A model generated the notes under the pieces. It ran no database searches and was not told the origin of the DNA. It was given only the letters and a program-made list of their open reading frames with translations. From assembly GCA_034521595.1 (NCBI GenBank), contig JAXHMG010000003.1:1120001-1184000 (forward strand): a stretch of DNA of 64,000 nucleotides, written 5' to 3'. This DNA comes from Gemmatimonadota bacterium (lineage in GTDB: Bacteria; Gemmatimonadota; Gemmatimonadetes; Longimicrobiales; Gaopeijiaceae). The translations under genes and the position numbers were made by a program. Shown in pieces: positions 2,819 to 45,188 of this stretch (its first letter is position 1; the number at the start of each line of letters is the position of its first letter).

Positions 2819-3964
2819 GTGAGCACGGATACGGTCGATGTCGTGGTCGTCGGTGCGGGGATCGTCGGCGCTTCCTGCGCCTGGCACCTGGCATCGCGCG
2901 GCCTTCGGGTCGTGGCGTTGGAGACGGAGGCCGCGCCCGCGATGGGCTCGACGGGGAAGAGCGCCGCCGGCGTGCGCGTCCAGTTCACCACGGCGCCGAA
3001 CATTCGGCTGTCCATGCACTCCCTGCCGTTCTATCGGAGCTTCGAGACCCGTTTCGGCATGGACATCGGATATCGCCCGATCGGCTACTTGCTTCTCGCC
3101 CCGGAGGAGCGGTGGGACCAGCACCTCGAATCCGTCGAGCTGCAGCGCTCGCTAGGGGCGCCCGTCGACGTGTTCTCACCGGAGGAGGCTCTGCGCTTCC
3201 TCCCCTTCGACACGGAGGGCTTGGCCGGCGCGACGCGTGGGCCGTGGGACGGGGTCATCGATCCACACATGGCGACGCAGGCTTTCGTCACGATGGCAAA
3301 GCGGGAAGGAGCGGAGTTCCGGTTCGGTGACCCGGTCACGGCGGTCACCAGGTCGCCGTCGGGTGGATGGGAGATCGTGTCCGCGAAGGGGCGCGTGCAC
3401 GCGGACTACGTCGTGAACGCGGCGGGAGCTTGGTCCGGAGAGGTCGCTTCGCTCGCGGGGCTGGATGTGCCGGTGGGTCCGAAGAAGATCCAGATCTTCC
3501 TGAGCGCGCCGATCGACGACGAGCGCACGTATCCTCTCACCGTCGATCTGGCCACGGGGGTCTATGTTCGCTCCGAAGGAGACAGGGTCCTCTTCGGAAA
3601 GGATCGCTTGGACCAGGAGATCGGCTTCGAGGAAGGGATGGATTGGTCCTGGATGGAGCACGTCCTCCTCACGGGCGTGACGCGGTTCCCCTGGTGGGAG
3701 GACCTCGGCGTGGATCGGAAGAGCAGTTGGTGGGGCTACTACGAGATGTCTCCCGACCACAGCCCGATCATCGAAGCGCATCCGCACGCGCCGACATGGA
3801 TCGACGCGTGTGGTTTTTCGGGCCACGGCATCATGCACGCCCCCGCCACCGGGTTGGCGGTCTCGGAGATCGTGGCCGACGGCGCCAGCCGCACCCTGGA
3901 TGTCTCCGCGTTCGGCCACGCCCGGTTCGGCGCGAATCTCCCGCACGAAGTCAACGTCTTCTGA
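2819..3964 (+). CDS. FAD-dependent oxidoreductase, DAO/sarcosine oxidase beta-like
   Basis: GAGIVG Rossmann motif, GSTGKSAAG, VNAAGAWS, SPDHSPII, GFSGHGIMHAP. Confidence 0.9.
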   Translation: MSTDTVDVVVVGAGIVGASCAWHLASRGLRVVALETEAAPAMGSTGKSAAGVRVQFTTAPNIRLSMHSLPFYRSFETRFGMDIGYRPIGYLLLAPEERWDQHLESVELQRSLGAPVDVFSPEEALRFLPFDTEGLAGATRGPWDGVIDPHMATQAFVTMAKREGAEFRFGDPVTAVTRSPSGGWEIVSAKGRVHADYVVNAAGAWSGEVASLAGLDVPVGPKKIQIFLSAPIDDERTYPLTVDLATGVYVRSEGDRVLFGKDRLDQEIGFEEGMDWSWMEHVLLTGVTRFPWWEDLGVDRKSSWWGYYEMSPDHSPIIEAHPHAPTWIDACGFSGHGIMHAPATGLAVSEIVADGASRTLDVSAFGHARFGANLPHEVNVF

Positions 3965-4023
3965 TGAGCCGCGCCGTTCCACCGGTCGCCTGCACGCCCG
4001 CCGGCCGCGCGAGGCGCCCATGA
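3964..4023 (+). CDS. Putative bridge mini-ORF, 19 aa (MSRAVPPVACTPAGRARRP)
   Basis: TGATG overlap with upstream stop; its TGA overlaps downstream ATG 4020 (ATGA). Confidence 0.5.
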   Translation: MSRAVPPVACTPAGRARRP

Positions 4024-4217
4024 GCATCCTCTGGATCGTGCTGCCGGGCTTCGTCGTGGGCGTTCTCGTAATGGACAGCGTGCGGCGGATCTTCTCCGAG
4101 GACGACACCCTCGTTCGCCGGCTCTTCGCCGATCAACCCGTCACGATGATCGCGGCGGCCACCACGGTGGGATCCGTGCTGGTCTGGGGTGTGTTGAGGG
4201 CGTTGCGGTTGATGTGA
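4020..4217 (+). CDS. Small 2-TM membrane protein, 65 aa
   Basis: GAGG upstream of ATG; two hydrophobic segments (ILWIVLPGFVVGVLVM; MIAAATTVGSVLVWGVL). Confidence 0.7.
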   Translation: MSILWIVLPGFVVGVLVMDSVRRIFSEDDTLVRRLFADQPVTMIAAATTVGSVLVWGVLRALRLM

Positions 4218-4262
4218 AGGAAAGGCTGAGTCCGATCGACGGCCTGCGTGTGGAACGGTGCG

Positions 4263-4448
4263 TCAGTCCGTCGCCTTCCGTCGCCGATCAGGGGTGGTCC
4301 GGCGCTCTCCGCGCCTACGGTCGGGCCGGAGGCGACGGTCTCCGCGTGCGCCGAGCGGGCCACGACGGCGCTCGCCCTGCGATCTCCGCTCTCCGTTCAC
4401 ACGGCGATCCTGATGGCTACGGCGTTCTCCGGACCTCTTCACGAACAT
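4263..4448 (-). CDS. Small Arg-rich protein with eight [D/E]RR repeats, 61 aa
   Basis: GGGAG upstream of ATG; MFVKRSGERRSHQDRRVNGERRSQGERRR...DRRLRPDRRRGERRTTPDRRRKATD. Confidence 0.6.
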   Translation of the reverse strand: MFVKRSGERRSHQDRRVNGERRSQGERRRGPLGARGDRRLRPDRRRGERRTTPDRRRKATD

Positions 4449-4596
4449 CGGTTCGACGTCTCCCGGCGTTGGGGGCTGAGGGCGCATGCATGGTCGACCC
4501 ACGCGGTGGTTTATGGAACATGTCGTGAGGCCCGACCGGCGTCAAAGCGGTTGGCCGATCGGGCCTCGAACGACACGTGCTCCGTGGCGTCGGGGG

Positions 4597-6183
4597 TCAG
4601 AGCGACCCCGGTCCGCCCGGCCGCCGGCTCGAGGGTCTCCTGGAGGGCGCGCTTCCCCTGGAAGAGCCACGGGACGGAGTCGAACGTGCCTCGGGACTCC
4701 GTGACGACGGCCTCGATCCCGCAGACGGAGTCGAACGCGCACCGGAACTCCGCGACGAGGGGCGGGACCCGGCGGATGGATCCCGCCGTGGCTCAGCCCG
4801 GGACGGGGCTGACCGTCGTGACACGCTCGGGCGTTCGCCCCGGTCCGAGCGAACGGCGCCGGAAGGCGCGGAACCTCGGGAGGGGCGTGACGGCACGGCC
4901 CGGCGGGACTCGGGCGCCGACCGTGTGGACGGTCTCGATCGGGTACTGGGGGTCGAACGGGGCTCCGAGCGAACGTTGGCCCGAGGACGCCCGTCACGGG
5001 GTGTGGCCCGTGCCGCGGGAGCGCGCCCGTTCCCCCGAGGAGCCACCGTGGGCCGTCGATCGCCACCGGACGAAGAAGATGGCGCGGCGCGATCGGACGG
5101 ACGCCGGCCCTGGCTCGGGGCGACTCGAGCCGATGGACGGCTCGGAGCACGGGGCGTGGCGCGTGTCGAGGGACGTTCCTCCGACCGTGGAGCGACGCGA
5201 GCTGACGGGCGTTCACGGGTCGACGGAGTCGCGCGTGCCGCGGGACGCGCCTCCGACGCCCGGCTCGCCGAGCCACGCTCGGTCGCTTCCGGACGTACGA
5301 CCCTGCCGGAGGGGCGTGCCCGAGCTCGATTCGACGGAGTCGACCGGGCCGCGGGCCCGGCGTCCGCTCGCGCGCCGGATCCCGATGCGGATCGAACGCG
5401 GGCGTTATCGAAACGCGACGGTGCGGCGATCCGGCCGGACGGCCGTCCGGTGGCCGTCGACCGGTCCTGGGCGATACGCGTGCCGCTCGGCGCGGCCGAG
5501 GCCGCGCCGGCCCGCCGGACGGCCGTTCGGGACCCGGCCCTGGATGCGGGCGACTCCTTATACCGGGTGAACGAGCCGGCGAGCGGGGAAGGTCGATAGG
5601 AAGCCACGCCGCGGCGTCCTCCGTAGGCGTACACGGTCCTTACGGGGCGGGGTGCGTACCGGCGGGACCACCGGCCGTCGACATAGCCGTCCTGGTAGCC
5701 GCTCCAGTAGGAGGTCCACGGGTCGTACGCCCAGTACGGTGCCCGTGCGACCACGTAGGGTCTGCTCACGTAGAGGTGACGTGGAGCACGGTAGACGGAA
5801 TACCCTGCCCAGCCGTGTCGCCACCGCTTCGCGCGAAACGAGAGACACTCGACGTACCAGCCCCCGAAGGGATCCCAGTAGCTTTCCCAGTAGGAGTCCC
5901 AGCAGCTCGCCCGCACGGTCACATAGTTTCGGGGCGCGGGTGTCCGGTGCCCGTAGTCGTAGGCGGAGGAACGGCTGCGATATCGGGTGCCGTAGTAGGT
6001 CCCGAGTGATGCGCTCAGGAACACCGAGCCGGCGTCGTGATACGAGGCCGTGCTGAACCCGACGCCGGTGAAGAGAGGGCCCGTCTCCAACGTGACCGAC
6101 AGGTGGGTCTGCGACGCCGAGGCGATCGGCGCGAAGGCTGTGACCGCCACCAAGAGTGCGAACGAGCGTGTCAGGATACCCAC
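4597..6183 (-). CDS. Secreted hypothetical protein: signal peptide, Tyr/Trp-rich region, long Arg/Ser/Pro/Ala low-complexity tail (528 aa)
   Basis: AAGGAGG before GTG 6183; ILTRSFALLVAVTAFAPIASA signal peptide; peptide-level repeats with synonymous variation in this frame. Confidence 0.8.
   Translation of the reverse strand: MGILTRSFALLVAVTAFAPIASASQTHLSVTLETGPLFTGVGFSTASYHDAGSVFLSASLGTYYGTRYRSRSSAYDYGHRTPAPRNYVTVRASCWDSYWESYWDPFGGWYVECLSFRAKRWRHGWAGYSVYRAPRHLYVSRPYVVARAPYWAYDPWTSYWSGYQDGYVDGRWSRRYAPRPVRTVYAYGGRRGVASYRPSPLAGSFTRYKESPASRAGSRTAVRRAGAASAAPSGTRIAQDRSTATGRPSGRIAAPSRFDNARVRSASGSGARADAGPAARSTPSNRARARPSGRVVRPEATERGSASRASEARPAARATPSTRERPSARVAPRSEERPSTRATPRAPSRPSARVAPSQGRRPSDRAAPSSSSGGDRRPTVAPRGNGRAPAARATPRDGRPRANVRSEPRSTPSTRSRPSTRSAPESRRAVPSRPSRGSAPSGAVRSDRGERPSVSRRSAPSRAEPRRDPSAGSRPSSRSSGARSTPSAGSRPSSRSPEARSTPSRGSSRGSAPSRRPSSRRPGGPGSL
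4673..4774 (-). repeat. Two 51-bp in-frame tandem units encoding PSAGSRPSSRSxxARST
   Basis: GACGGAGTCGAACG recurs at 4673 and 4724. Confidence 0.8.
5081..5247 (-). repeat. About five degenerate 12-aa coding repeats (RPxxRxxP core)
   Basis: RPAARATP / RPSARVAP / RPSTRATP / RPSARVAP / RPSDRAAP at 12-residue spacing. Confidence 0.7.
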
Positions 6184-6638
6184 GGTGTCCTCCTTGCGAT
6201 GAATCCATCCTTCATGCGTGCATGGGTCATGCCACGGCCCGAGAGCAGCGAAGCGCCCGTGGTTGACGATGTTCCGGTCCCGTCCCGACGGGAAGTGTCC
6301 ATCCTCGTGGACGGCGAGTGTCCCGGTGAAGGACACCCATCCTCGAGAAGGAAGCCTCGCGCCAGCCCGGCTTCCGACGCGCCCTACCGGCGAGGCTTGG
6401 ACAGCGGCTCGCTACCGCTCCGGCGTCCCGCCCGAAAGTCCGTACTTGATCCACGAGCAGATTCGTGAAAGATTACTACCCGTCCAGCCGACTTGAAGCA
6501 CGTCGGCACCGGTCTCGGCCCCCTGGCCAGCCGGATGGGCCCGTGCCGCGCCCTCTTGGCGCGCGGATTACCTCCTGACGGATGCATGAGCGCGAGCGAC
6601 GCCGCGCCGAGGTCGCATCCGGCAACCGGTTTGAAACA

Positions 6639-7943
6639 GTGTCCGACTCGCCGAACAAGCAGCAGGGTGGCGGTTCCAAGAAATCCCGGCGTGGCAATCG
6701 CCGTCGTCGGGGCCGCGGCAAGAACCGCCGCAACCAAGATCAAGACAACAACCGCAACGACGGCGACAACTCGATCGACCTACCGGACGATCCCGAGGAG
6801 CTGATGGCGCAGTCCCGTCCCCTGGGGCTGTTGGAGATCCTCGGGAGCGGATCGGGCTTCATTCGCCGCCGCGAGGCCGGATACACGCCCGGTGACGACG
6901 ACATCTACGTGGCGTCGCGCATCATCCAGAAGTTCGGGCTCCGCGCGGGCGACGAGCTGATGGGCATCATCGGCAAGCCGCCGAGGCCGGGCAAGAGCGC
7001 CCCACTCGCCTATTTGGCGATGGTCAACGACCATCCGCCCGATCAGGCGAAGAATCGGCCCGAGTTCGAGCGTCTCGGAGCCGTCCACCCCGACGAGCAA
7101 CTCGTACTCGAATGCGGTCGGACCATCCTCGGGGAGCCCGATTACACCAATCGGGTCATCGACCTGTTCTGCCCCTTCGGAAAGGGTCAGCGGGCTATGA
7201 TCGTGGCCCCGGCCAAGGCGGGTAAGACCATGGTCATGCAGGCGGTGGCCGAAGGGATCGTCACGAACAATCCGGAGTGCCACCTCATGTTCCTGCTCGT
7301 GGACGAGCGTCCCGAGGAGGTCACCGAGATGGAGCAGTGCGGCTTCGGCGAGGTGATCGCGTCCACGTTCGATCGACCCGCCGAGCGTCACGTACAGGTG
7401 ACCGAGATGACGCTGGAGCGGGCGCGTCGCAGGGTTGAGCAGGGCGAAGACGTCGTCGTCATCCTCGATTCGATCACCCGCATGGCTCGGGCCTACAACT
7501 CCGTCGAGAACGGGAGCGGGAAGACGCTGTCCGGAGGTCTCGACGCGAACTCGCTCGAGAAGCCGAAGCGCTTCCTCGGCAGCGCCCGGAAGATCTCCGA
7601 TACCCAGGGCGGGGGATCGCTGACGATCATCGCGACCGCGTTGGTCGACACGGGGTCCCGTATGGACCAGGTGATCTTCGAAGAGTTCAAGGGAACGGGG
7701 AACAGCGAGCTCGTGTTGTCCCGGGAGCTCGCCGACAAGCGGATCTACCCGGCGATCGACCTATCCCAGTCGGCTACGCGGAAGGAGGAGCTCTTGATGG
7801 ACGAGGGCGCCCTCCGCATTTCGCACGCGATGCGCCGCCAGCTTGCCGGCATGAATCACACGGACGCGATGCTCGAGCTCCTGGGCGCGATGCGTAAGAC
7901 ACAGTCGAACCGCGAGCTCATCGACTACGCCCGGAGCCGCTGA
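6639..7943 (+). CDS. rho: Transcription termination factor Rho with low-complexity N-terminus
   Basis: GFIR, DDIYV, GKGQR, APAKAGKT P-loop, DERPEEVT, DSITRMARAYN, FEEFKGTGNSEL; start GTG 6639 chosen (ATG 6582 possible). Confidence 0.95.
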   Translation: MSDSPNKQQGGGSKKSRRGNRRRRGRGKNRRNQDQDNNRNDGDNSIDLPDDPEELMAQSRPLGLLEILGSGSGFIRRREAGYTPGDDDIYVASRIIQKFGLRAGDELMGIIGKPPRPGKSAPLAYLAMVNDHPPDQAKNRPEFERLGAVHPDEQLVLECGRTILGEPDYTNRVIDLFCPFGKGQRAMIVAPAKAGKTMVMQAVAEGIVTNNPECHLMFLLVDERPEEVTEMEQCGFGEVIASTFDRPAERHVQVTEMTLERARRRVEQGEDVVVILDSITRMARAYNSVENGSGKTLSGGLDANSLEKPKRFLGSARKISDTQGGGSLTIIATALVDTGSRMDQVIFEEFKGTGNSELVLSRELADKRIYPAIDLSQSATRKEELLMDEGALRISHAMRRQLAGMNHTDAMLELLGAMRKTQSNRELIDYARSR

Positions 7944-8463
7944 CGACATCGTCCAAACGGTCGAGACTCCGTTCGAGCTCGGCCGTCTGGGCCCGATCCA
8001 TGAAGAGGGCCCAGTAGCCCATGAGCGGGTTGGGCCCGAGGGTGCCCGTCTCTCGCCACGAGATCCGAACGCCCTCACCATCCGGCGCGAGGCTGAGGGT
8101 GCCCGTGGTTCGCATGGTACGACCGACTTCCACTTCGTAGGTGACACGCTCGGGCGGCGTGACTTCGACGATTCGGAAGAGCCCCTCTCCGAGGTCCGGG
8201 TCGTCCCACGACATGCTCGCACCAGGTCCCCGCTCGGGCCCCGAGCGCTCGAGCCCCGAGTCCGGCCATGCCGTCCACGAACGCCATCCTTCGGGCGTGT
8301 CCAGCAACGAATAGACGTCGCGCGGAGAGGCGTCCGCGACGAGCTTCGACGCTCCGGCTTCCCAGTCCGAAGGAAGGAGGAAGCCCAGCACGAGAAGGCC
8401 GATGAGGAGGGTGGCCGCACCGCCGAGGATCTTGGTGCCGAGGCTGAACGGTGAGCCGGTCAT
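7918..8463 (-). CDS. SRPBCC/START-family protein with N-terminal membrane anchor
   Basis: N-terminal TM, WRSWTAW, GPGASMSW, ELERSLDRL terminal helix; ATGA overlap with tesA stop. Confidence 0.8.
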   Translation of the reverse strand: MTGSPFSLGTKILGGAATLLIGLLVLGFLLPSDWEAGASKLVADASPRDVYSLLDTPEGWRSWTAWPDSGLERSGPERGPGASMSWDDPDLGEGLFRIVEVTPPERVTYEVEVGRTMRTTGTLSLAPDGEGVRISWRETGTLGPNPLMGYWALFMDRAQTAELERSLDRLDDVVSGSGRSR

Positions 8464-9242
8464 CGATTGCCGTCCCCTCCTTCGGCGGCCACTGGCTCTC
8501 CGTCGGTGCCGTGGGAGGCGGCCTCGAGAGCGGCCGTCAGCTCCGGAAGAATGTTCTCGGCCATACGTCGGTGTCCTGTTTCGGTCGGGTGGATGCCATC
8601 GGCTGCGTTGAGCTCGCGGACGCCTGCGACTCCGTCCAGGAAAAAGGGCACGAAGTAGGTGTCTTCCCGTGTGGCGACGTCCCGGAACACCTCGCGGAAT
8701 GACGTCACGTATCGCCGGCCCAGGTTCGGGGGGGCCTCCATGCCCAGGACCACGATCTTCGCGGCCGGGTAGCGCTCTTTCGTGCGGCGGATGATGGTCA
8801 AGAGGTTGTCGCGGAGCTCGGCGACCGGGAGGCCGCGCAGGCCGTCATTGGCCCCGAGCTCGAGGACGAGGATGTCGAGCGGCTCTTGAAGAACCCAGTC
8901 GATCCGCCGGACACCGCCCGCGCTCGTCTCACCCGAGACGCCCGCGTTCACTGCGGTGAAGGGCACCCCCGCGTCGGCCGCGAGTTCCGTCAGATGCGCC
9001 ACGTAGGTATCGTCCTCGCTCTGAAGGCCCATCCCCGACGTCAGGCTCGTACCGAAGAACACGACCACGGGGAGCGTGTCTTCCGAGAGAGCGTCGATCG
9101 TCCGACTCGGCGCTCGGGAGCCGTCCCCGGCCTGCGAATCGGGAGCGGACGCGCCCTGGTCGGCTGCCGAGGGGGGAGCCTCCGAGCCAGGGTTGCACGC
9201 TGCGAGCGTGAGGAGTAACGACACGGAGCCGAGGAGTCGCAT
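8460..9242 (-). CDS. tesA: SGNH arylesterase/thioesterase I, predicted lipoprotein
   Basis: Lipobox LAAC; GTSLT, NAGVSGETS, ELGANDGLRG, DGIHP blocks. Confidence 0.88.
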   Translation of the reverse strand: MRLLGSVSLLLTLAACNPGSEAPPSAADQGASAPDSQAGDGSRAPSRTIDALSEDTLPVVVFFGTSLTSGMGLQSEDDTYVAHLTELAADAGVPFTAVNAGVSGETSAGGVRRIDWVLQEPLDILVLELGANDGLRGLPVAELRDNLLTIIRRTKERYPAAKIVVLGMEAPPNLGRRYVTSFREVFRDVATREDTYFVPFFLDGVAGVRELNAADGIHPTETGHRRMAENILPELTAALEAASHGTDGEPVAAEGGDGNR

Positions 9243-9990
9243 GTTGATCGTGGCGGAAGGACTGGAGAAGACGTACGAGAGCGGGGGTCGGCCGCTCCGT
9301 GTGCTGGATTCGCTGGACCTCGCCATCGAGCGCGAGTCCGTCGTGGCGGTCGTGGGACCGTCCGGGAGCGGCAAGACCACCCTGCTCGGGCTGATGGCCG
9401 GGCTCGATGCCCCGTCGGGCGGCCGTGTCCTCATCGACGGGCAAGACCTCTCCGCTCTTACCGAAGACGGTAGGGCGGAGTTTCGTGCACACCGGGTCGG
9501 ATTCGTCTTCCAGACGTTTCATCTGCTGCCCACCATGACGGCCGTCGAGAACGTCATGGTCCCGTTGGAGCTACAAGGTTCGTTCCGGGGGGCCCGAGCG
9601 CGCGCTGCGGAGCTCCTCGATCGCGTCGGCCTCTCGGACCGCGCCGACCACTACCCGGCGCAGCTGTCCGGTGGTGAGCAGCAGCGGGTGGCGCTCGCAC
9701 GGGCGTTCGCGAACCGACCGGACATCCTCTTCGCCGACGAACCCACGGGGAATCTCGATGAGCGCACCGGAGGAACGATCATCGAGATGCTCGAGGAACT
9801 CAACGAGGAGGAGCGCACGACGCTGGTGCTCGTGACCCACGACACCGCGCTCGCGGAGCGAGCCCATCGGGTCGTGACGCTTTCCGGGGGCCGGGTCGCG
9901 TCGGATCGCCCGGGTTGGCGCCGGGCGCACGGGGCCGGAGGGGAACGGGCGGCCTCGAGCCACGCCACCGAAAGCGACATCGAGACATGA
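9241..9990 (+). CDS. ybbA: ABC ATP-binding protein, YbbA/LolD type
   Basis: GAGGAG before ATG 9241; GPSGSGKTT, LSGGEQQR, FADEPTGNLD, VTHD. Confidence 0.9.
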   Translation: MLIVAEGLEKTYESGGRPLRVLDSLDLAIERESVVAVVGPSGSGKTTLLGLMAGLDAPSGGRVLIDGQDLSALTEDGRAEFRAHRVGFVFQTFHLLPTMTAVENVMVPLELQGSFRGARARAAELLDRVGLSDRADHYPAQLSGGEQQRVALARAFANRPDILFADEPTGNLDERTGGTIIEMLEELNEEERTTLVLVTHDTALAERAHRVVTLSGGRVASDRPGWRRAHGAGGERAASSHATESDIET

Positions 9991-12566: not shown

Positions 12567-12937
12567 AGCGCCTCCGCCGGTAGCTCGAGCGCGCTGGTGT
12601 GGTGGCACGCTTCGCATTCGAGGGGGTGGGGCCTGCGGAGACGCTGGGGCTTCACGGTCAGCGGGCCTCCGCACTTCGGGCACGCACCCTCGACGGCCAT
12701 CAGCGTGTGGGTCTCGATCCACCGCCTACGGCCCAGTACGGCACCCACCGCGAGCGCTCCGATCGCCCAAGGCGCATGCGGGGGCACGACGGCCACGATC
12801 GGGGCGAGGAGCACCCCGATGCCGAGCGAGCGGGCCGCTCCCGAGAGGCGCCACGACCGAGGGCGTGGCTCGATCTCGGCTACGACCGCGACAGGCTCGT
12901 ACCCGAAAAGAACTGCCCTGCCGTGAATGGCCTGCAC
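12563..12937 (-). CDS. Hypothetical 2-TM protein with C-terminal zinc ribbon
   Basis: Hydrophobic hairpin around VPPHAPW; CPKC...CEAC; starts 6 nt after aminotransferase stop. Confidence 0.75.
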   Translation of the reverse strand: MQAIHGRAVLFGYEPVAVVAEIEPRPRSWRLSGAARSLGIGVLLAPIVAVVPPHAPWAIGALAVGAVLGRRRWIETHTLMAVEGACPKCGGPLTVKPQRLRRPHPLECEACHHTSALELPAEAL

Positions 12938-12943
12938 GATCCG

Positions 12944-14119
12944 TTACCCCTTCTTCGCGAAGTCTCGTAGACGCTCACCCACTTCGTGGAGCGTCTCCTC
13001 GCGCTTGCAAAAGACGAATCGGACCAGCGAGCGTCCCGCCCCCTCGGTGTGGTAGAAGCTCGAGCCCGGGACCGTGGCGACCCCGGCCTCACGGACCAGC
13101 CGCTCGGCGAAGGTGAAGTCGTCCTCGTCGCTCAGCGCGCTGAAGTCGGCCATCACGTAATAGGCCCCCTGGGGCAGCGCGCACTGGAAGCCGGCGTCCC
13201 GCAGCCCCGAGAGCATGATGTCCCGCCTGGGCCGGTATTCCTCGATGAGCTCCCTGTAATAGCTCGGGCCCAGTTGTCGGATGCCCACTGCGCCCGCTTC
13301 CTGGAGCGGCGCGGCCGTGCCCACGGTCACGAAGTCGTGAATCTTCTGGATCCCGTCCGAGAGAACCTCCGGGGCCACGATCGTTCCGATCCGCCAGCCC
13401 GTCACGCTGTACGTCTTGGACATCCCGCTGATCGTGACGGTCCGGTCGGCCATGCCCGGCAGGGTCGCGAGCGGAACGTGCTCGCCTTCGTAGACGATGT
13501 GCTCGTAGATCTCGTCGGTGATGGCGAGGATGTCGTGCTCCACGCACAGGTCCGCGATGACCTGAAGCTCCTCCCGCCCGAACACACGGCCCGTCGGATT
13601 GTTGGGTGAGTTCACCACGATGGCTCGGGTGCGGGGCGTCACGAGCGCGGCCAGCGCCTCCGGGTCGATCGTGTAGTCGGGAGGGTCGAGACACAGGTAC
13701 ACGGGCTTCGCCTGGGCCAGCATGGCGTCCGGACCGTAGTTCTCGTAAAAGGGCTCGAACACGATGACCTCGTCGTCCGGGTCGAGGAGCCCCAGCATCA
13801 CGCACGCCATGGCCTCGGTGGCCCCGCACGTGACGGTGATCTCCCGCTCGGGGTGGAAGTCGAGCCCATACCACTCCCGGTATTTCTCCGCGAGCACGGC
13901 GCGGAGGCTCGGGGCCCCGCTCGTGACCGCGTACTGGTTGAGGTCGCCCCGGATCGCGGCGCAGGCCGCCTCCTTGAGTGGCTCGGGGGCGGGAAAGTCG
14001 GGCATGCCCTGGGCCAGATTGATGGCGCCGTGCCGGTCCGCGACCTCCGTCATGTCGCGGATCACGGATCCTCCCAGCGCTTCGGTGCGCCGTGCGGTTC
14101 TCTGAATCGGGTCGGTCAT
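12944..14119 (-). CDS. Class I/II PLP aminotransferase (methionine/glutamine-aromatic type)
   Basis: INLAQGMPD, NSPNNPTG, DEIYEH, SGMSKTYSVTGWRIG; start moved to ATG 14119. Confidence 0.9.
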   Translation of the reverse strand: MTDPIQRTARRTEALGGSVIRDMTEVADRHGAINLAQGMPDFPAPEPLKEAACAAIRGDLNQYAVTSGAPSLRAVLAEKYREWYGLDFHPEREITVTCGATEAMACVMLGLLDPDDEVIVFEPFYENYGPDAMLAQAKPVYLCLDPPDYTIDPEALAALVTPRTRAIVVNSPNNPTGRVFGREELQVIADLCVEHDILAITDEIYEHIVYEGEHVPLATLPGMADRTVTISGMSKTYSVTGWRIGTIVAPEVLSDGIQKIHDFVTVGTAAPLQEAGAVGIRQLGPSYYRELIEEYRPRRDIMLSGLRDAGFQCALPQGAYYVMADFSALSDEDDFTFAERLVREAGVATVPGSSFYHTEGAGRSLVRFVFCKREETLHEVGERLRDFAKKG

Positions 14120-14346
14120 GAAGGAACCATGCGTCGAAGTGGAGCGCCGCGGATGGGCGCGACGCAGCGGGGAGCCAACGATGTTGCACCGCGTGGCTCT
14201 AGGCAACCGCTTCCCCCCTTGGCAGGGAAGCGTCCGGTGCCGTAGTGTCGGCGCATGCACTCGGTATCCACCCACGCGCTCGGGCCACACACTCCGGGTG
14301 GGCCGGGCGCGCCGTCGCCCTTCCACGATGCCGCGGAGACCCGTCC

Positions 14347-14604
14347 ATGCTCAACTCCGAACGCTGGCCCGTCGCGCTTGCCGTCCTCTTCCTGTCCACT
14401 TGGGCGTCGCTCGCGGCACCCGTTCAGGGACAGGCGCCTCCGGTACGCATGCGGATGCGGTTCGCCTCAACCACGCATGTCGGAATCCTTCAGTCCATCC
14501 CGGGCATGAGGAAGGTCGACGGCTTCACGGTGGGGTACGGCGCTCGGAACGCGGATGCAGCGTACCGGCTCATCCGCCTCCTGTATCGCTTCGTGCGACA
14601 ATGA
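14347..14604 (+). CDS. Small secreted hypothetical protein, 85 aa (possibly a gene remnant)
   Basis: GGAGA before ATG; signal-like WPVALAVLFLSTWASLAA; stop participates in an ATGA overlap. Confidence 0.5.
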   Translation: MLNSERWPVALAVLFLSTWASLAAPVQGQAPPVRMRMRFASTTHVGILQSIPGMRKVDGFTVGYGARNADAAYRLIRLLYRFVRQ

Positions 14605-14633
14605 GCCTCCTCATGACCCACGGAACGAGATGA
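14601..14633 (+). CDS. Putative bridge mini-ORF, 10 aa (MSLLMTHGTR)
   Basis: ATGA overlap at both ends (14601-14604 and 14630-14633). Confidence 0.5.
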   Translation: MSLLMTHGTR

Positions 14634-15838
14634 GTACCGAGTCGTCGGACCGAGTCCGGGAGCGTTGGTTTCAGCTCGGCTTGGTCGCGGGGGCGGTGCT
14701 GCTCTCACTCTCCGCGTGGCTGACCGCGACGGCCGTAGCTCCGGAGCTCCGAGCACGGTGGGCGCTCACGACGCCGCAGGTCGGGTGGCTCACCACCGTC
14801 GTGCAGGTGGGCTTCGTCGCCGGAACCGCGTCGGCCGCGTTCATGAACCTCGCGGACGTTCTGTCATCGCGCGCGTACTTCGCCCTGTCCGCGCTGCTCG
14901 CCGCGACCGCGAATGCCGTCCTTCTGGTCGCGTCGGACTATCCGGTCGCGCTGGCGGCCCGGTTCTTCACCGGCTTTTTCCTGGCGGGCGTCTACCCGCC
15001 GGGCATGAAGATGATGGCCACCTGGTTCCGTGCCGAAAGAGGCCTGGCGATCGGCACGATCGTGGGCGCTCTGACCGTCGGGAAGGCGATGCCGTATCTG
15101 ATGAAGGCCTTCGGAGGTCCGGATGCCGGGTTCGTCATCGCGGGTGCCTCCTGGGCCGGGCTCCTCTCGGCCGCGATGGTCGGCCTGGCCTACCGGGACG
15201 GCCCTCACGACTTTCCGCGACGCGCGTTCGAGTGGCGGCGCGTGGGACGGATCCTGCGCCACCGTCCGACGATGTTGGCGACGGGAGGGTATCTCGGTCA
15301 CATGTGGGAGCTCTACGCCATGTGGTCGCTGATCGGGCTCTTCTTCACCGACTATTTCGGACTCCGGGGCTCGGCCCGGGCGGACCTCCATGCACCTCTG
15401 GCGACGTTCAGCGTCATCGCCATCGGGGGGGTAGGGGCCGTCTTGGCCGGACGCTGGGCCGACCGTGTGGGGCGGGCGCGTGTCACGATCGGGTCGATGG
15501 CGGTGAGCGGTGGCTGTGCGCTCACCGCCGGCTGGTTGCTCGCGGCCCCGCCATGGCTCGTGCTCGGGGTCACGCTCGTATGGGGATTCACGATCGTGGC
15601 GGATTCCGCGCAGTTCAGCGCGGTCGTGACGGAGCGTGCGCCACCCGATTCGGTGGGCACCGCGCTCATGCTCCAGACGATGGCGGGCTTTGCGCTCACC
15701 GGCGTTTCCATCCAGCTTACCAGCACGTTGGCCACTGCTTGGGGATGGGGGCCGGCGTTCGCGATCTTGGCGCTGGGGCCGGTGTGCGGGATCAAGGCGA
15801 TGCGCGCCCTGCAACCCGACGACGTCCCCGTGGTATGA
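14630..15838 (+). CDS. MFS transporter
   Basis: About 12 TM segments; GVYPPGMK, GYLGHMWELYAMW, GRWADRVGR, ADSAQFSA. Confidence 0.9.
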   Translation: MSTESSDRVRERWFQLGLVAGAVLLSLSAWLTATAVAPELRARWALTTPQVGWLTTVVQVGFVAGTASAAFMNLADVLSSRAYFALSALLAATANAVLLVASDYPVALAARFFTGFFLAGVYPPGMKMMATWFRAERGLAIGTIVGALTVGKAMPYLMKAFGGPDAGFVIAGASWAGLLSAAMVGLAYRDGPHDFPRRAFEWRRVGRILRHRPTMLATGGYLGHMWELYAMWSLIGLFFTDYFGLRGSARADLHAPLATFSVIAIGGVGAVLAGRWADRVGRARVTIGSMAVSGGCALTAGWLLAAPPWLVLGVTLVWGFTIVADSAQFSAVVTERAPPDSVGTALMLQTMAGFALTGVSIQLTSTLATAWGWGPAFAILALGPVCGIKAMRALQPDDVPVV

Positions 15839-15891
15839 ATCCGTCGATCCCTCCTGAATGTACCGTCGAATCTCGAGGACCTGAGCGATGA
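15835..15891 (+). CDS. Putative bridge mini-ORF, 18 aa (MNPSIPPECTVESRGPER)
   Basis: ATGA overlap at both ends (15835-15838 and 15888-15891). Confidence 0.55.
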   Translation: MNPSIPPECTVESRGPER

Positions 15892-16265
15892 GCAAGAAGG
15901 TGAAGACCGCACTGTCCTGCGCGCTCCTCGCGGCGTTGGTGGCAGCCGTGCCGTCCGCCACCCTGCATTTCGACCTCAGTCGGTCGGTCCCCGAAGCCGG
16001 CGCCACGGTGCCCGCGCCTTCGGAGATCACGCTGTGGTTCACCGAGGTTCCCCAGGACAACTCGATCTCCATACGGCTCATCGACCCGCGCGGTGATCTC
16101 GTGGACTCCACCGAGCCGAACCAGGACGCGGAAGACGGCACGATGTTCAGTATCGCCCCGTCCGCGTCGGTCGCGCCCGGTGAGTATACGGTGGCGTGGC
16201 GAGGCATCGGCCAGGACGGGCACACCGTCCGGGGGGACTTCGGCTTCACGGTGGGGGCCCGATAG
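15888..16265 (+). CDS. copC: Periplasmic copper-binding protein CopC
   Basis: Signal peptide then His (HFDLSRSVP); ITLWFTE; YTVAWR...DGH Cu(II) motif. Confidence 0.88.
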   Translation: MSKKVKTALSCALLAALVAAVPSATLHFDLSRSVPEAGATVPAPSEITLWFTEVPQDNSISIRLIDPRGDLVDSTEPNQDAEDGTMFSIAPSASVAPGEYTVAWRGIGQDGHTVRGDFGFTVGAR

Positions 16266-17188
16266 AGGAGATCGGACCCGGTCCCGTCCTGGACGCGATC
16301 ACGGGCTGGGTCCTCTTCGCGGCGATTCTGGGCTCGATTGGGGCGGTCGCGCTCCGTTGGGCGGTCCTGCCGTGGATCCACCTGAAAGGGTATCCGTCCG
16401 ATACCGGAAAGGCGTTGGTCGAGGGAGCAGCGCGATTCGGCAGCTACGTCGCGCTATTCGTGCCTCTCGCGTTTCTCCTGGTCTTCACGCGCCAACTTCT
16501 CGAGTTCCGGGATCCGTTCGTACCGTGGACCGAGGACGCCCACCTCTTGCTAACCGGGACGAGTTGGGGCCGTACGTTCATCTTCTTCGGCGCTTTGGGC
16601 GTCGCGGTCGGTCCGGCGTTTCGGCTCGCTCGCCGGCACCCCGCGTGGGGCTGGGCCCTCGTGACCGCCATGGTTCTCGCGCTCGGAGCTTTCCCAGCTC
16701 TGACGGGCCACGCGAGCGCCGGAGAAGGCGTCGGGCGCGCCCTCACTCTCGGGTTGGACGTGCTCCATGTTTGGGCAGCGGGTGCGTGGATTGGCGGGCT
16801 GGCCGGAGTGTTGTTCCTCGACACGACCATGCGGCGCCGTGACGACACCGGACCGCGCGTGCTGCCCGCGCTGATCCCGGCGTTCTCCACGCTGGCCATC
16901 GCGGGGGTCGGCACGCTCGTGGTCACGGGGACCGCCGCATCCTGGATTCACTTACCGCGCCTCTCCGCCTTGCTTTCGGAGCCCTACGGACGAACACTCC
17001 TGATCAAGCTGACGGCGGTCGGACTGGTTCTCGGGCTGGGTTGGCTCAATTGGAAGCGCCTCACGCCACGGCTGGCCCGTCCATCCGGAGCTGATACCCT
17101 GTATCGGGGAGCGACGCTCGAGCTCGTCGTCGCCCAGTTGGTTCTGTTGGTTACGGCCGTATTGGTGCGCACGCCACCCAACGGATGA
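16262..17188 (+). CDS. copD: Copper resistance membrane protein CopD (start uncertain)
   Basis: TGHA, HVWAAGAWIGGL, FS, VVTG, YGRTLLIK; only canonical start is GTG 16196 inside copC; in-frame ATA 16262 overlaps copC TAG. Confidence 0.85.
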   Translation: MEEIGPGPVLDAITGWVLFAAILGSIGAVALRWAVLPWIHLKGYPSDTGKALVEGAARFGSYVALFVPLAFLLVFTRQLLEFRDPFVPWTEDAHLLLTGTSWGRTFIFFGALGVAVGPAFRLARRHPAWGWALVTAMVLALGAFPALTGHASAGEGVGRALTLGLDVLHVWAAGAWIGGLAGVLFLDTTMRRRDDTGPRVLPALIPAFSTLAIAGVGTLVVTGTAASWIHLPRLSALLSEPYGRTLLIKLTAVGLVLGLGWLNWKRLTPRLARPSGADTLYRGATLELVVAQLVLLVTAVLVRTPPNG

Positions 17189-17250
17189 GCCGCGAACCCC
17201 GACTTTCCGGGGCTCCACCAATCGCGAGGAGGCGGCCGGAAGCCCGGTGA
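17185..17250 (+). CDS. Putative bridge mini-ORF, 21 aa (MSREPRLSGAPPIARRRPEAR)
   Basis: ATGA overlap with copD stop; TGA 17248-17250 overlaps GTG 17247 and ATG 17250 of mrpE. Confidence 0.55.
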   Translation: MSREPRLSGAPPIARRRPEAR

Positions 17251-17723
17251 TGATGGCCCGCCACATTCTTGTATGGATCGGCTTGCTCACGCTGGCCTGG
17301 CTCATCTTGGAGCCGAGTTGGAGTGCGTGGGCCGCCGGCGTTCTAGCGGTCACCACGGGAATGGCGCTTCGGTTGTATGCCGGCCGGCTTCGCCGCATAG
17401 GCCTTCATCCGCTCCGACTTCCACGCTTCGGGCTCTACTTCCTCGCCCAGTCGGTGAGCGGTGGCTGGGATGTGAGCCGGCGGGCCCTGACACCGGCGCT
17501 GCCACTCTCGCCGGACCTGATCACGCATCACCTTTCATTGTCCTCCCAGTCGGCGCGTGTGTTCGTGAGCAACGCCTTGAGCCTCCTCCCCGGTACGATC
17601 GCCGCGGACCTCCGAGGGCACGTCCTCATCGTGCACGTCCTCGTGACAGGGAGCGACGCCGAGGCTAGGGTGAGGACCCTGGAAGCCCGAGTAGCTCACC
17701 TGTTCGGAGCGGAAGGCCCGTGA
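17247..17723 (+). CDS. mrpE: Mrp/Mnh antiporter subunit E
   Basis: SGGWDVSRRAL, NALSLLPGT, LIVHVL. Confidence 0.85.
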   Translation: MMMARHILVWIGLLTLAWLILEPSWSAWAAGVLAVTTGMALRLYAGRLRRIGLHPLRLPRFGLYFLAQSVSGGWDVSRRALTPALPLSPDLITHHLSLSSQSARVFVSNALSLLPGTIAADLRGHVLIVHVLVTGSDAEARVRTLEARVAHLFGAEGP

Positions 17724-28247: not shown

Positions 28248-28251
28248 CGCG

Positions 28252-29029: not shown

Positions 29030-29043
29030 ACCCACGCGACCCC

Positions 29044-32725: not shown

Positions 32726-32726
32726 C

Positions 32727-36918: not shown

Positions 36919-36921
36919 AGA

Positions 36922-37422
36922 ATGGCGATATCAGTACGGGTCATGGAGCGCCCGGAGCCGGAGACGACGTCATATCTCCGGGCGGCGCTCAGCGGGATGG
37001 CACTCACTTTCAAGCACCTGGTGAACCCGAACAAGGTCACCCAACAGTACCCCGAGGAGCAGACCGACCTCAGCCCCCGGTGGCGCGGTACGCACCGCAT
37101 GGAGGTGCACGCGGACGGGCGACCCAAGTGCGTCGCTTGCGGCCTGTGCCCGACCGTGTGCCCCGCAAACTGCATCCGATTGGTCGGGGGTGAGGACGAC
37201 CAGGGGAACCGTTATCCCATCGTCTACGAGATCGACGAGTTCCGCTGCATCTTCTGCGGGATGTGCCAGGAAGTCTGTCCCGTCGAGGCGATCCACGTCG
37301 GCCAGCACTTCGAGAACGCGGAGTACACGCGCGACCGCTTCGTCTACGACCTCGACCGCCTCATGGAGCAGGAGCATCCCGTCACCTTGCTTTGGGATCC
37401 GGCCGACCCGAGGTCGGAGTGA
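36922..37422 (+). CDS. nuoI: NADH-quinone oxidoreductase subunit I
   Basis: Two ferredoxin motifs CVACGLCPTVCP and CIFCGMCQEVCP. Confidence 0.97.
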   Translation: MAISVRVMERPEPETTSYLRAALSGMALTFKHLVNPNKVTQQYPEEQTDLSPRWRGTHRMEVHADGRPKCVACGLCPTVCPANCIRLVGGEDDQGNRYPIVYEIDEFRCIFCGMCQEVCPVEAIHVGQHFENAEYTRDRFVYDLDRLMEQEHPVTLLWDPADPRSE

Positions 37423-37505
37423 CTGAGCTCCAGATGAAGACCGCGCGCCGCTCCGAGCTCGGGGCCGTGCGGACACCTTCCGTCCACCCGCAAGCCGCTC
37501 GATGA
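37419..37505 (+). CDS. Putative bridge mini-ORF, 28 aa ([28 protein letters not shown])
   Basis: GTGA overlap with nuoI stop; ATGA overlap with nuoJ start. Confidence 0.5.
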   Translation: MTELQMKTARRSELGAVRTPSVHPQAAR

Positions 37506-38020
37506 TGGACATTCTGTTTTACGTCTTCTCCGCAGTGGCCATCGGCGGGGCGCTCGGGGTCGTGCTCGCCAAGAGCCCGGTCGGGAGCCTCCTGTTCATG
37601 GTCACGACACTGGCGAGCCTGGCCGGCACGTTCGTGCTGCTCGAAGCGCACTTTCTCGCGGCGATCCAGGTCATCGTGTACGCCGGCGCGATCATGGTGC
37701 TCTTCCTCTTCGTCATCATGCTTCTGAACCTCGGACACGACTACGTGCAAGACCTTAGAGGCGGTGCCTTCGGTGTGGCATCGTTCGCCGTCATCGGGCT
37801 CATGGCGGGTCTGCTGTCGCGTCAGCTCAGTGGCCCCGGAACACCCACGTCCGGAGAGGGGGGAGCAGCCATCGATGCCGCCATCGCGGAGCACGGGGTC
37901 GTCGGTGCCATCGCCGAGCCGCTGTACACGACCTACGTCGTCCCCTTCGAGATCACGGGGATTCTCCTTCTCGTTGCGATCGTGGGCGCGATCGTTCTGG
38001 CCAAGAGGAAGGTTGACTGA
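37502..38020 (+). CDS. nuoJ: NADH-quinone oxidoreductase subunit J
   Basis: [24 protein letters not shown]. Confidence 0.96.
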
Positions 38021-38313
38021 TGATCAATGAGGCCCTGGTCCTGAGCGCGATCCTCTTCGTGATCGGCACCTTCGGCGTCCTCGTGCGGCGGAACGCCATC
38101 ATCATGTTCCTCGCCATCGAGCTGCAGCTCAACGCGGTGAACCTCGCGTTCGTGGCCTTTTCCCGCGTCGTCGGGATCGAGGGACAGGTATTCGTTTTCT
38201 TCGTGATGACCGTCGCCGCCGCGGAAGCCGCGGTCGGACTCGCGATCATCATCTCGATCTTCAGGCACTACGAGACCGTGAACGTGAATAACTTCAACCT
38301 GCTCAAGTGGTAG
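38020..38313 (+). CDS. nuoK: NADH-quinone oxidoreductase subunit K
   Basis: [22 protein letters not shown]. Confidence 0.96.
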
Positions 38314-38317
38314 CGGC

Positions 38318-42039: not shown

Positions 42040-42050
42040 AGAACGCAACG

Positions 42051-43586: not shown

Positions 43587-43653
43587 GGGACGACCGCATC
43601 GGGATCGCTCCTTCGGCCGGGCGAGACCCGTTTCTCGAGGCGATTGGAGTACC

Positions 43654-45024
43654 ATGCTAGCGCACATCTTCAGACAGTACGACATCCGAGGGATCGTCGG
43701 AGAGGACCTCGACGCCGACATCGCCGAAGCCGTCGGGCGGGCTTTCGGCTCCCACGTCCGTGACGCGACCGGAATCGAAACGCCGTCGGTAGCGCTCGGA
43801 TACGACAACCGACACTCTTCACCGGACCTCGCCGCGGGGACGATCCGCGGTCTCCGAGCCGCCGGCGCCGACGTGCTCGACGTAGGCACTGTTCCGACTC
43901 CCGTGCTCTATTGGGCCGAGCAGGTCTTCGAGGCGCACGCGGGCATCCAGATCACGGGATCGCACAACCCGCCCGAGTGGAACGGCATCAAGATGACCGT
44001 GCAGGCCCAGGCCCTCTACGGAGATGCCATCACGGGCCTCCGGGACCGGATCGAGCGGAACGTTCTGGCATCCGGGGAAGGCGGTTACCGGCGCGTCGAC
44101 GTGCTCGACCGATACGTCGAAGACGTCGTCGGACGCTTCGAGCTGGCGCGTCCCGTGCGGATCGGCGTCGACTGCGGGAACGGCACCGCATCCCTCGTGG
44201 CCGAGCGGTTGCTCACGGAGTTGGGCGCCGAGGTCACGCCGCTCTTCTGTGACTCGGACCCTTCGTTTCCCAACCACCACCCCGATCCGACGGTCGACGC
44301 CAACCTGGCCGACCTGATTCGGGTCGTCCGCGAGAACGATCTCGAGGTCGGAGTGGCGTTCGATGGAGACGGGGACCGGATCGGCGTGGTCGACGGGGAA
44401 GGGCGGATCGTCCGGGGCGACGTGCTCTTGCTCCTGTACGGTCTGGATCTGCTCGAGAAGCGCGGGCCGGGTCAGAAGCTCGTCTTCGACGTGAAGTGCT
44501 CTCAGGTTCTCCCGGAGGTCTTCGAGGCCGCCGGTGGCGAACCGATCATGTGGAAGACGGGGCACTCGCTCATCAAGCGTAAGATGAAAGAAACCGGTGC
44601 GCGTCTCGCGGGCGAGCTGTCCGGGCACATCATGATCGCGGACGACTATCTCGGCTTCGATGACGCACTCTACGACGCCTGTCGGCTCGTGGATCTGATC
44701 GCCCGCTCGGAGCGTACCATCGCCGAGCAGGTCGCCGAGTTCCCCGAGTACGTCTCGACGGCCGAGATCCGGATCGACGTCACCGAAGAGGACAAGTGGC
44801 GCATCGTCGAAGAAGCGGTCACGCACTTCAAGGCTTCCCACGACGTTATCGACGTGGACGGCGCTCGCGTTCTGTTCGGAGACGGGTGGGCCTTGCTCCG
44901 CACCTCGAACACCCAGGCGGTCATCGTCGCACGCTTCGAAGCCAAGACTCGGGAACGCCTCGACGAGATCCGGAAGGAAGTCGGAACGTGGTTGGAAACC
45001 CAGGGAGTCTCGCTACCATCGTGA
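43654..45024 (+). CDS. Phosphomannomutase/phosphoglucomutase (AlgC type)
   Basis: FRQYDIRG, TGSHNP, FDGDGDR, GELSGH, RTSNT. Confidence 0.95.
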   Translation: MLAHIFRQYDIRGIVGEDLDADIAEAVGRAFGSHVRDATGIETPSVALGYDNRHSSPDLAAGTIRGLRAAGADVLDVGTVPTPVLYWAEQVFEAHAGIQITGSHNPPEWNGIKMTVQAQALYGDAITGLRDRIERNVLASGEGGYRRVDVLDRYVEDVVGRFELARPVRIGVDCGNGTASLVAERLLTELGAEVTPLFCDSDPSFPNHHPDPTVDANLADLIRVVRENDLEVGVAFDGDGDRIGVVDGEGRIVRGDVLLLLYGLDLLEKRGPGQKLVFDVKCSQVLPEVFEAAGGEPIMWKTGHSLIKRKMKETGARLAGELSGHIMIADDYLGFDDALYDACRLVDLIARSERTIAEQVAEFPEYVSTAEIRIDVTEEDKWRIVEEAVTHFKASHDVIDVDGARVLFGDGWALLRTSNTQAVIVARFEAKTRERLDEIRKEVGTWLETQGVSLPS

Positions 45025-45188
45025 GAGCCCGTTGCAGCAATCCAATGTCCGCCGTGAGCAGGGTACGCCGGGGCGAGCCCGCAAGCGAGACGCATGATCG
45101 TGAGCGGTCCTTCCACACGACGCCGTGCAGCACCACTGGACCACTCGGGTCACCCCCACGCAGTCGTGATCGAGGAGCGCTGACGTGA
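45021..45188 (+). CDS. Putative bridge mini-ORF, 55 aa
   Basis: GTGA overlap with PMM stop and GTGA overlap with UPF0182 start; frame open throughout. Confidence 0.45.
   Translation: MRARCSNPMSAVSRVRRGEPASETHDRERSFHTTPCSTTGPLGSPPRSRDRGALT

Follow-up and report, generated by a model that had tools for sequence, protein, structure and literature searches.

The stretch of DNA described here (the window) comprises 64,000 nucleotides of a Gemmatimonadota genome (contig JAXHMG010000003.1, positions 1,120,001 to 1,184,000). In six gaps between co-directional genes, the initial annotation noted a mini open reading frame (ORF) which starts on the stop codon of the upstream gene and ends with a stop codon overlapping the start of the downstream gene, and it interpreted these bridge ORFs as a candidate system for relaying ribosomes across intergenic spacers. 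Our analysis indicates that the six bridges are probably, for the most part, a product of base rate and shifted gene ends, with no dedicated relay system behind them.

Four elements of this account were established directly: the anatomy of the bridges, the base rates of their components, the way in which gaps 2, 3 and 5 arose, and the poor conservation of the arrangement. With a GC content of 67% and stop codons dominated by TGA, bridges would be expected at a few per cent of co-directional gaps; short GC-rich spacers would seldom carry a stop codon in the bridge frame, which corresponds to the upstream gene's -1 frame, one that is open by nature. Further bridges would arise above this base rate by turnover of gene ends, and indels and expansions (gaps 2, 3, 5 and 6) would leave the old frame open between the old and the new stop/start overlap. 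Since termination-reinitiation can take place at every NTGA overlap, we infer that some ribosomes probably pass along the bridge ORFs. Such a hand-over would represent a side effect which insertions must tolerate and not a recurrent device.

Anatomy of the bridge ORFs

Inspection of the sequence confirmed all six double-overlap mini-ORFs, both in their position and in the overlaps at their ends:

3964..4023, + strand: bridge ORF 1, 19 codons (MSRAVPPVACTPAGRARRP); its ATG and the upstream TGA have the A in common (TGATG), and its TGA overlaps ATG 4020 (ATGA)
14601..14633, + strand: bridge ORF 2, 10 codons (MSLLMTHGTR); ATGA start, ATGA end on ATG 14630
15835..15891, + strand: bridge ORF 3, 18 codons (MNPSIPPECTVESRGPER); ATGA start, ATGA end on ATG 15888
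17185..17250, + strand: bridge ORF 4, 21 codons (MSREPRLSGAPPIARRRPEAR); ATGA start, TGA overlapping GTG 17247 or ATG 17250
37419..37505, + strand: bridge ORF 5, 28 codons; GTGA start, ATGA end on ATG 37502, 79-nt spacer
45021..45188, + strand: bridge ORF 6, 55 codons; GTGA start, GTGA end on GTG 45185, 160-nt spacer

At both ends of all six bridges, stop and start codons overlap by 4 nt or 1 nt; in gap 4 this applies to two of the three candidate starts of the downstream gene mnhE (GTG 17247, ATG 17250 and ATG 17253). The premise that overlaps of this kind are the signature of termination-reinitiation coupling is sound, and the bridge peptides are, as had been noted before, unrelated to one another. 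Bridge 6 forms the tail of a 130-codon open frame (44796–45188), and altogether four of the six bridges terminate ORFs of 130–408 codons (218, 171, 408 and 130 codons), because the -1 frame of the respective upstream gene is open over a long distance.

The predicted folds of the six spacers are no more stable than those of shuffled versions (z-scores from -0.25 to +2.25), and a search of the window for Rfam families gave 0 matches. Moreover, a simple scan detected no terminator-like or promoter-like consensus matches inside the six gaps, which does not in itself prove co-transcription.

Base rates and genome-wide count

The source genome (G000) is metagenome-assembled and consists of 3.49 Mb in three contigs, with an estimated completeness of 93%. 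A self-written caller, which combines codon log-odds with weights for Shine-Dalgarno (SD) motifs and start codons, yielded 3072 genes and 2214 co-directional neighbour pairs, 1086 of which are separated by gaps of 20–300 nt. At five of the six gaps in the window the caller chose the same downstream start as the initial annotation, and gap 1 is scored as a bridge by this pipeline as well; the small copC gene downstream of gap 3 (15888) was missed. Each gap was classified by the presence of a start codon overlapping the upstream stop (U) and of a stop codon overlapping the downstream start (D). A bridge was defined as U and D in one frame with the spacer open in that frame. Both overlaps share one frame exactly if the gap length equals 1 mod 3, which is referred to as phase 1. 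As a null model for the bridge count, the U and D labels were shuffled among gaps.

The individual components of a bridge are common. At the 1086 gaps U is found at 41.4% of stops (ATGA 9.4%, GTGA 19.9%, TTGA 10.6%, stop followed by TG 3.8%) and D at 36.1% of starts. The initial annotation had argued that an A before TGA is uncommon in a genome of this composition, a view which the frequency of ATGA, together with that of start-on-stop overlaps of any kind, does not support. The bridge frame is free of stop codons across the spacer in 58% of the gaps and in 87% of those of 20–34 nt. As the -1 frame of the upstream gene, it has already run open over a median of 76 codons by the time the upstream stop is reached.

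The genome-wide count that had been suggested as a check gave 52 bridges at the 1086 gaps (4.8%), compared to 34.9±5.2 expected by the null model (P about 0.001); stratification of the null by gap length gave 35.0±5.1. The claim that the six cases are non-random is borne out in so far as a modest, 1.5-fold excess exists across the genome, but the cluster in the window is unexceptional. Bridges account for five of the 15 called gaps in the window (six of 16 with copC) versus 4.8% genome-wide, corresponding to an uncorrected hypergeometric P value of 4e-4 for a window which was chosen after its reading. When labels were permuted along the contig, 64-kb windows with at least six bridges, the maximum observed, occurred in 12% of the permutations (P=0.12).

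Two possible origins of the spacers were rejected at this stage. Junction duplication was assessed with the 12 flanking bases of the 48 of 52 bridges of the NTGA...NTGA type, for which identity amounted to 3.65 and 3.21 as compared to 3.57±0.20 and 3.34±0.22 after shuffling. An origin from repeat elements resembling mycobacterial interspersed repetitive units (MIRUs) was dismissed on the grounds that the next-best genome match of each of the six spacers is at most 20 nt long (E>=0.002) and matches between spacers do not exceed 9 nt.

Directly overlapping genes are likewise frequent, with 417 junctions at -4 and 62 at -1 among the 2214 co-directional pairs. Overlaps longer than 4 nt favour one frame, as -8, -11 and -14 occur 48, 12 and 7 times, respectively, versus 4, 10 and 8 times for -7, -10 and -13.

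Flanking genes and operon context

The genes on both sides of the gaps, with domains assigned by Pfam, are the following:

2819..3964, + strand: FAD-dependent oxidoreductase (DAO family), upstream of gap 1 (PF01266, E=8.5e-70)
4020..4217, + strand: 65-aa hydrophobic protein without Pfam family, downstream of gap 1 (tblastn, 66–73% identity at 5/5 congener loci)
14245..14604, + strand: remnant of an M55 D-aminopeptidase (Peptidase_M55), upstream of gap 2 (PF04951, profile positions 215–263 of 264)
14630..15838, + strand: major facilitator superfamily (MFS) transporter gene, downstream of gap 2 and upstream of gap 3 (PF07690, E=1.3e-23; called)
15888..16265, + strand: CopC-domain protein with lipoprotein-like N-terminus, downstream of gap 3 (PF04234, E=1.3e-19)
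16196..17188, + strand: CopD-family membrane protein, upstream of gap 4 (PF05425; start uncertain)
17247..17723, + strand: MnhE subunit of an Mrp-type Na+/H+ antiporter, downstream of gap 4 (PF01899, E=2.6e-21)
36943..37422, + strand: NuoI-like 2x[4Fe-4S] subunit of complex I, upstream of gap 5 (Pfam Fer4 families)
37502..38020, + strand: NuoJ (chain 6) of complex I, downstream of gap 5 (PF00499, E=7.1e-36)
43654..45024, + strand: mutase of the phosphoglucomutase/phosphomannomutase (PGM/PMM) family, upstream of gap 6 (four PGM_PMM domains)
45185..47959, + strand: UPF0182 family membrane protein, downstream of gap 6 (PF03699, E=1.7e-185)

Because it is conserved in five congeners, the 65-aa protein represents a real gene. 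The ORF upstream of gap 2 matches PF04951 only over the C-terminal 50 residues or so, and below the curated cut-off. The longest copD ORF shares 70 nt with copC (16196–16265), which makes the start of copD uncertain; the true start probably lies further downstream. GTG 45185 is the earliest possible start of the UPF0182 gene because three stop codons are present in its own frame within the spacer. The gene preceding gap 6 is not nuoN, since Pfam identifies a PGM/PMM mutase.

The six gaps had been described as intra-operon. This applies clearly only to gap 5, which separates NuoI and NuoJ; the ORF upstream of gap 2 is the M55 remnant, and gaps 3, 4 and 6 lie between unrelated neighbours (MFS and CopC, CopD and MnhE, PGM/PMM mutase and UPF0182). 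The adjacency of CopD and MnhE is found in one of three matching congeners (G004), whereas it is elsewhere that the genes are located in G002 and G003.

Downstream of gap 1, a region of 2.3 kb (4218–6581) contains no accepted gene call. Two long overlapping ORFs in this part of the window (4248–5570 on the + strand and 4597–6336 on the - strand) have no Pfam match.

Origins of the gaps in relatives

Five congeneric genomes (G001–G005), with about 70–80% nucleotide identity to the source genome, were used to trace the history of the individual gaps. Among these genomes the bridges of the window are kept at two gaps only, gap 5 in one of four and gap 6 in one of five.

In none of the five congeners does a start codon overlap the upstream stop of gap 1, which reads CTGA or CTAG, and gap 1 does not display the features of a frameshift relic. 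At gap 2 the MFS ORF starts, without any gap, on a GTG or TTG overlapping the upstream TGA in all five congeners. In the source genome, the variable leader of the MFS protein has shifted out of frame, and ATG 14630 serves as the new start of the gene. Bridge 2 is an out-of-frame relic of the ancestral MFS N-terminus. The adjacent M55 gene (window 14066–14604) has been cut to a C-terminal remnant, with about 600 nt deleted relative to the five congeners.

At gap 3 the nucleotide alignment reveals a 1-nt deletion in the source genome just before the conserved GGTGGTATGA, due to which the conserved GGT GGT ATG A of the MFS tail is now read as ..GTA TGA. The bridge ATG is identical with the conserved Met codon in the ...GGM... 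tail of the congeners, and the old tail frame continues up to the copC ATGA, the overlap to which the tail itself still extends in G004; G002, G003 and G005 possess TAG and a gap of 15 nt. Bridge 3 is a frameshifted relic of the MFS C-terminal tail. The initial annotation had also considered in-frame scars of deleted genes as a source of bridges. Relics were indeed found at gaps 2 and 3, but they derive from frameshifted MFS termini and not from deleted genes.

At gap 4 the sole syntenic congener (G004) has TAA and no bridge. Gap 6 measures 1 nt in G001 and G004, and G005 possesses a true bridge with a 49-nt gap; in G002 and G003 the gap is 51 nt long and the ORF ends 1 nt before the downstream start. 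Compared with the congeners, gaps 5 and 6 represent lineage-specific expansions of junctions that used to be tight.

The junction at gap 6 was followed further in a set of 80 loci (L260–L339). In 73 of the 79 loci that are labelled Gemmatimonadota and gave a downstream match, the mutase and UPF0182 genes are adjacent. Their relative frame is nearly fixed, with 43 of 53 positive gaps being 1 mod 3 and the -8 and -14 overlaps falling into the same pattern, which suggests a tight pair that is probably co-translated; many of the apparent gaps may be artefacts of start choice. Gaps of at least 20 nt occur at 23 of the 73 loci. Six of the 23 are bridges, about as many as predicted by an ordinary frequency of U (10/23), a conserved D (19/23) and the nearly fixed frame.

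Assembly errors could mimic such events if erroneous indels had created false stops and shifted starts, and a metagenome-assembled genome in three contigs in which two bridges are frameshift relics calls for this possibility to be considered. It is nevertheless highly improbable. Logan contigs of run X1 cover positions 3500–7698, 14312–16731 and 16934–17500 of the window with 0 gaps, and none of the indels listed for the Logan contigs of runs X1 and X2 (3500–17500) lies at gaps 1–4. Run X1 may be the source of the assembly, so that this comparison checks the assembler only, and it extends to gaps 1–4.

The nuoI–nuoJ junction

The spacer of gap 5 is absent in G002, G003 and G005 (TGAcATG). Both overlap motifs are ancestral, because the junction reads gaGTGAcATGA in these three genomes; in addition, nuoI ends with ...GAG TGA in all listed relatives with a TGA stop, by which the GTGA is likewise ancestral. 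In metagenome contigs both genes were found at 69 of 80 loci, and 20 of the spacers have a length of at least 15 nt. Two of the latter carry a bridge (L180 with 49 nt and L191 with 43 nt) and the other 18 do not. In the source genome, G004, L180 and L191 the ORF inside the insert closes with a -4 overlap at the downstream start.

A GAGG is located 5 nt before the GTG of bridge 5. The insertion would have moved nuoJ off its SD region, and passive hand-over of ribosomes may matter at this junction. To this extent the motifs make it plausible that the nuoI–nuoJ bridge acts as a passive ribosome relay.

The nuoI–nuoJ spacers of eight loci (L181, L192, L206, L220, L223, L227, L237 and L010) contain, by eye, a similar element of 150–250 nt with inverted ends gcgtgaaatggg ... 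cccatttgacgc. Its appearance suggests a small mobile repeat that may target the junction. A 15-nt motif of this element is present at six of the 80 metagenome loci (L206, L220, L223, L227, L228 and L237); in the source genome there are 12 near-matches versus about 6 by a rough estimate of chance, which is not clearly above chance.

The peptides predicted for the source genome and G004 at this junction differ in part by conservative replacements (VTELQMKTARR versus VSDIRVKSPRR), and bridge frames in general score slightly above other open spacer frames (Mann-Whitney P=0.03), both of which would be in line with bridges encoding small functional proteins missed by annotation. Such a coding role is very unlikely. 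The codon-usage log-odds of the 52 bridges are negative (-0.167 per codon versus about -0.22 in other spacer frames), and the peptides are neither related to each other nor conserved in the congeners; the genome-typical codon usage and conserved peptide by which a small gene is recognized are both missing. Moreover, the differences between the source genome and G004 in gap 5 are distributed 10:7:15 over codon positions 1:2:3 (hand count), a non-coding pattern.

Nature of the genome-wide excess

Several observations weigh against an explanation by base rate and shifted gene ends, and they can be considered together. The 1.5-fold excess of bridges across the genome is significant, and it is also seen if only bridges starting with ATG or GTG are counted (38 versus 26.2±4.6, P=0.008). 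It is specific for phase, since U, D and an open frame coincide at 14 of 329, 52 of 391 and 18 of 366 gaps in phases 0, 1 and 2, respectively. The excess recurs in congener G003, of which 2.39 Mb (about 56% of that genome) were passed through the same pipeline: 30 bridges were found at 680 gaps compared to 18.8±3.8 expected (P=0.003). Six of these 30 bridges are common to the source genome, so that the two tests are not independent. Furthermore, every gene call used here stems from the authors' simple caller and not from a curated annotation. A start-calling artefact was nonetheless rejected as the cause of the excess, which persists at the 205 gaps of the source genome whose starts are confirmed by the N-terminus of an ortholog (15 bridges versus 8.6±2.5, P=0.013); the caller is still a limitation.

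Conservation between the two genomes points in the same direction. Comparison of 724 orthologous co-directional junctions located 21 bridges of the source genome at junctions shared with G003, and six of these are bridges there too, as opposed to 0 of 14 controls with the same composite in another phase and 7 of 273 other gaps. The shared bridges include spacers of equal length (40/40 and 43/43 nt), and in one shared spacer a conserved hairpin followed by a T-run can be read as terminator-like. Recent frameshift scars of 4-nt overlaps were tried as a general source of bridges and discarded, since junctions of the enriched class correspond to overlaps in G003 no more often than the remaining junctions do (7/47 versus 39/261 and 7/60 versus 7/70), which leaves the neutral frameshift-scar account of the excess without general support and restricts it to gaps 2 and 3. 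Finally, at the nuoI–nuoJ junction a homologous open spacer is found in the source genome (79 nt) and in G004 (82 nt) with the bridge kept; the frames of both genomes, L180 and L191 are open and their lengths differ by multiples of 3, and no GGAG, GAGG or AGGA is present in the 19 nt before the nuoJ ATG.

On the - strand of contig C3 of the source genome (coordinate 375843), a further apparent gap of 364 nt contains a double-overlap ORF of 122 codons, the DNA of which is highly conserved in G003 (361 nt). Rather than a bridge, it is probably a gene that the caller missed, located in a different frame or on the opposite strand.

A selected relay, as favoured by the initial annotation, would comprise reinitiation on the NTG at the upstream stop, translation of the bridge, and termination with renewed reinitiation at the downstream start, perhaps providing protection from Rho. 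Each of these steps is an established kind of event, given that coupling operates at -4 and -1 overlaps and is lost at gaps of about 20 nt. The phase-specific excess in two congeneric genomes and the bridge status common to the source genome and G003 at 6 of 21 junctions, against 0 of 14 controls, are consistent with it, as is the nuoI–nuoJ junction, where nuoJ lacks an SD motif, GAGG precedes the GTG of the bridge, and G004, L180 and L191 preserve the frame. Nevertheless, a relay of this kind is rather unlikely. A start codon on the upstream stop is not significantly more frequent among gaps that possess the remaining features of a bridge (52 of 113, 46%) than among the others (398 of 973, 41%; P=0.31), and U and D are not significantly associated in phase-1 open gaps (odds ratio 1.42, P=0.23, n=233). 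Since a relay would depend on this start, its lack of enrichment is the main argument against the double overlap as a selected unit. At bridge junctions SD motifs are not weaker than elsewhere, strong ones preceding the downstream gene at 28 of 52 bridges and at 439 of 1034 other gaps. Spacer lengths differing by multiples of 3, which were expected among relatives, are not significantly favoured (7 of 13 bridges versus 51 of 132 non-bridges in the first 1.6 Mb of G003, P=0.38), and the same holds for conservation of phase (17 of 35 versus 71 of 186 junctions, P=0.26). In addition, five of the six junctions in the window are not clearly operonic, most of their bridges are absent from the congeners, and 18 of the 20 metagenomic nuoI–nuoJ spacers of at least 15 nt are devoid of a bridge.

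The excess resides instead at the downstream end of the spacer. D is found at 113 of 233 phase-1 open gaps versus 47 of 158 phase-1 closed gaps, and at 71 of 190 and 73 of 220 open gaps of the other phases. Within phase-1 open gaps D is raised both with U (52/97) and without U (61/136), the latter being a further point against a relay. This distribution could be explained if a TGA on the start codon were favoured wherever the -1 frame of the upstream gene runs open through the spacer. Out-of-frame or reinitiated ribosomes would then stop on the start codon of the next gene, and bridges would be the subset with a start on the upstream stop. The effect is independent of such a start, and it has the same direction in G003 (0.549 versus 0.422) and with validated starts (33/55 versus 9/28). 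A capture of ribosomes in this manner is unlikely, though, as the bridge excess does not depend on the length over which the upstream -1 frame is open (Spearman rho 0.02, P=0.77), for which reason ribosome flux from this frame was rejected as its source; two related genomes were examined, and residual bias of the gene caller is possible. A combined explanation, in which ribosomes in the -1 frame select for TGA on the next start in high-GC bacteria and bridges form the core of a layer for capture and hand-over that sustains the SD-less nuoJ, appears equally doubtful as the relay.

Taken together, base rate combined with shifted gene ends remains the preferred reading of the six bridges in the window. 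The genome-wide surplus may reflect weak selection for terminating upstream-frame ribosomes on start codons, slowly evolving spacers or a hidden bias.

Implications and comparison with known systems

If a relay were at work, the annotation of operons in high-GC genomes would have to count spacers that look untranslated as working parts of translation, and the length and frame of any insertion separating coupled genes would be under constraint. The base rates call for caution, since about one in 20 co-directional gaps of a GC-rich genome mimics a relay on their account alone, and clusters are to be expected across many windows. Two aspects retain interest beyond this. One is the reproducible, phase-specific 1.5-fold excess of stop codons placed on start codons. 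The other is the loss of the ribosome-binding context of an essential complex I subunit (nuoJ) to an insertion of 80 nt, which is open-framed in the few lineages that share it.

Termination-reinitiation coupling is established at -4 and -1 overlaps (Huber et al. 2019, PMC6728339) and is nearly abolished when about 20 nt separate the genes (Huber et al. 2023, PMC10666635). Because coupling is lost over such a distance, a translated bridge could in principle restore hand-over. Both ends of the bridges consist of exactly these overlap motifs. Unlike the known cases, in which two real genes are joined directly, the bridges chain two overlaps through an ORF that looks non-coding, and this chain is known here from sequence alone.

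A review of 2025 (PMC12548453) mentions that a short ORF may serve solely to deliver ribosomes to the next gene. The review also covers MIRU ORFs, for which Supply et al. 1997 and Shell et al. 2015 are cited. As described there, these ORFs resemble the bridges in that an intercistronic insert carries a short ORF coupled at -4 to the downstream start. Such an insert sits between genes at little cost, and the nuoI–nuoJ insert is similar in outline. MIRUs, in contrast, form a dispersed and tandemly repeated family, whereas the six spacers are unique, unrelated to each other and without junction duplication.

In Mycobacterium tuberculosis, a preprint (10.1101/2022.06.01.494293) reports NUGA overlaps of 4 or 1 nt between upstream ORFs (uORFs) and genes as well as between uORFs; in its authors' proposal, Rho-dependent termination is suppressed by tight coupling. 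The preprint also describes, and leaves unexplained, a frame preference among longer overlaps. The likeness to the bridges lies in the 4- or 1-nt overlaps in a high-GC genome, and the idea of an effect on Rho is the one put forward by the initial annotation. The uORFs differ in being supported by ribosome footprints, while the bridges were recognized from their nucleotide sequence only. In outline, the mechanism suggested for the bridges is already in print. No genome-wide census of double-overlap bridge ORFs was found in a literature search that covered few subscription journals.

High-GC genomes contain long spurious ORFs in the -1 frame of their genes. The bridges fit well into this picture, as four of the six are tails of long open frames and the frame is open over a median of 76 codons upstream. 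Unlike the bridges, for which a 1.5-fold excess of ORFs ending exactly on the next start is observed, spurious ORFs in the -1 frame would not by themselves account for such a preference.

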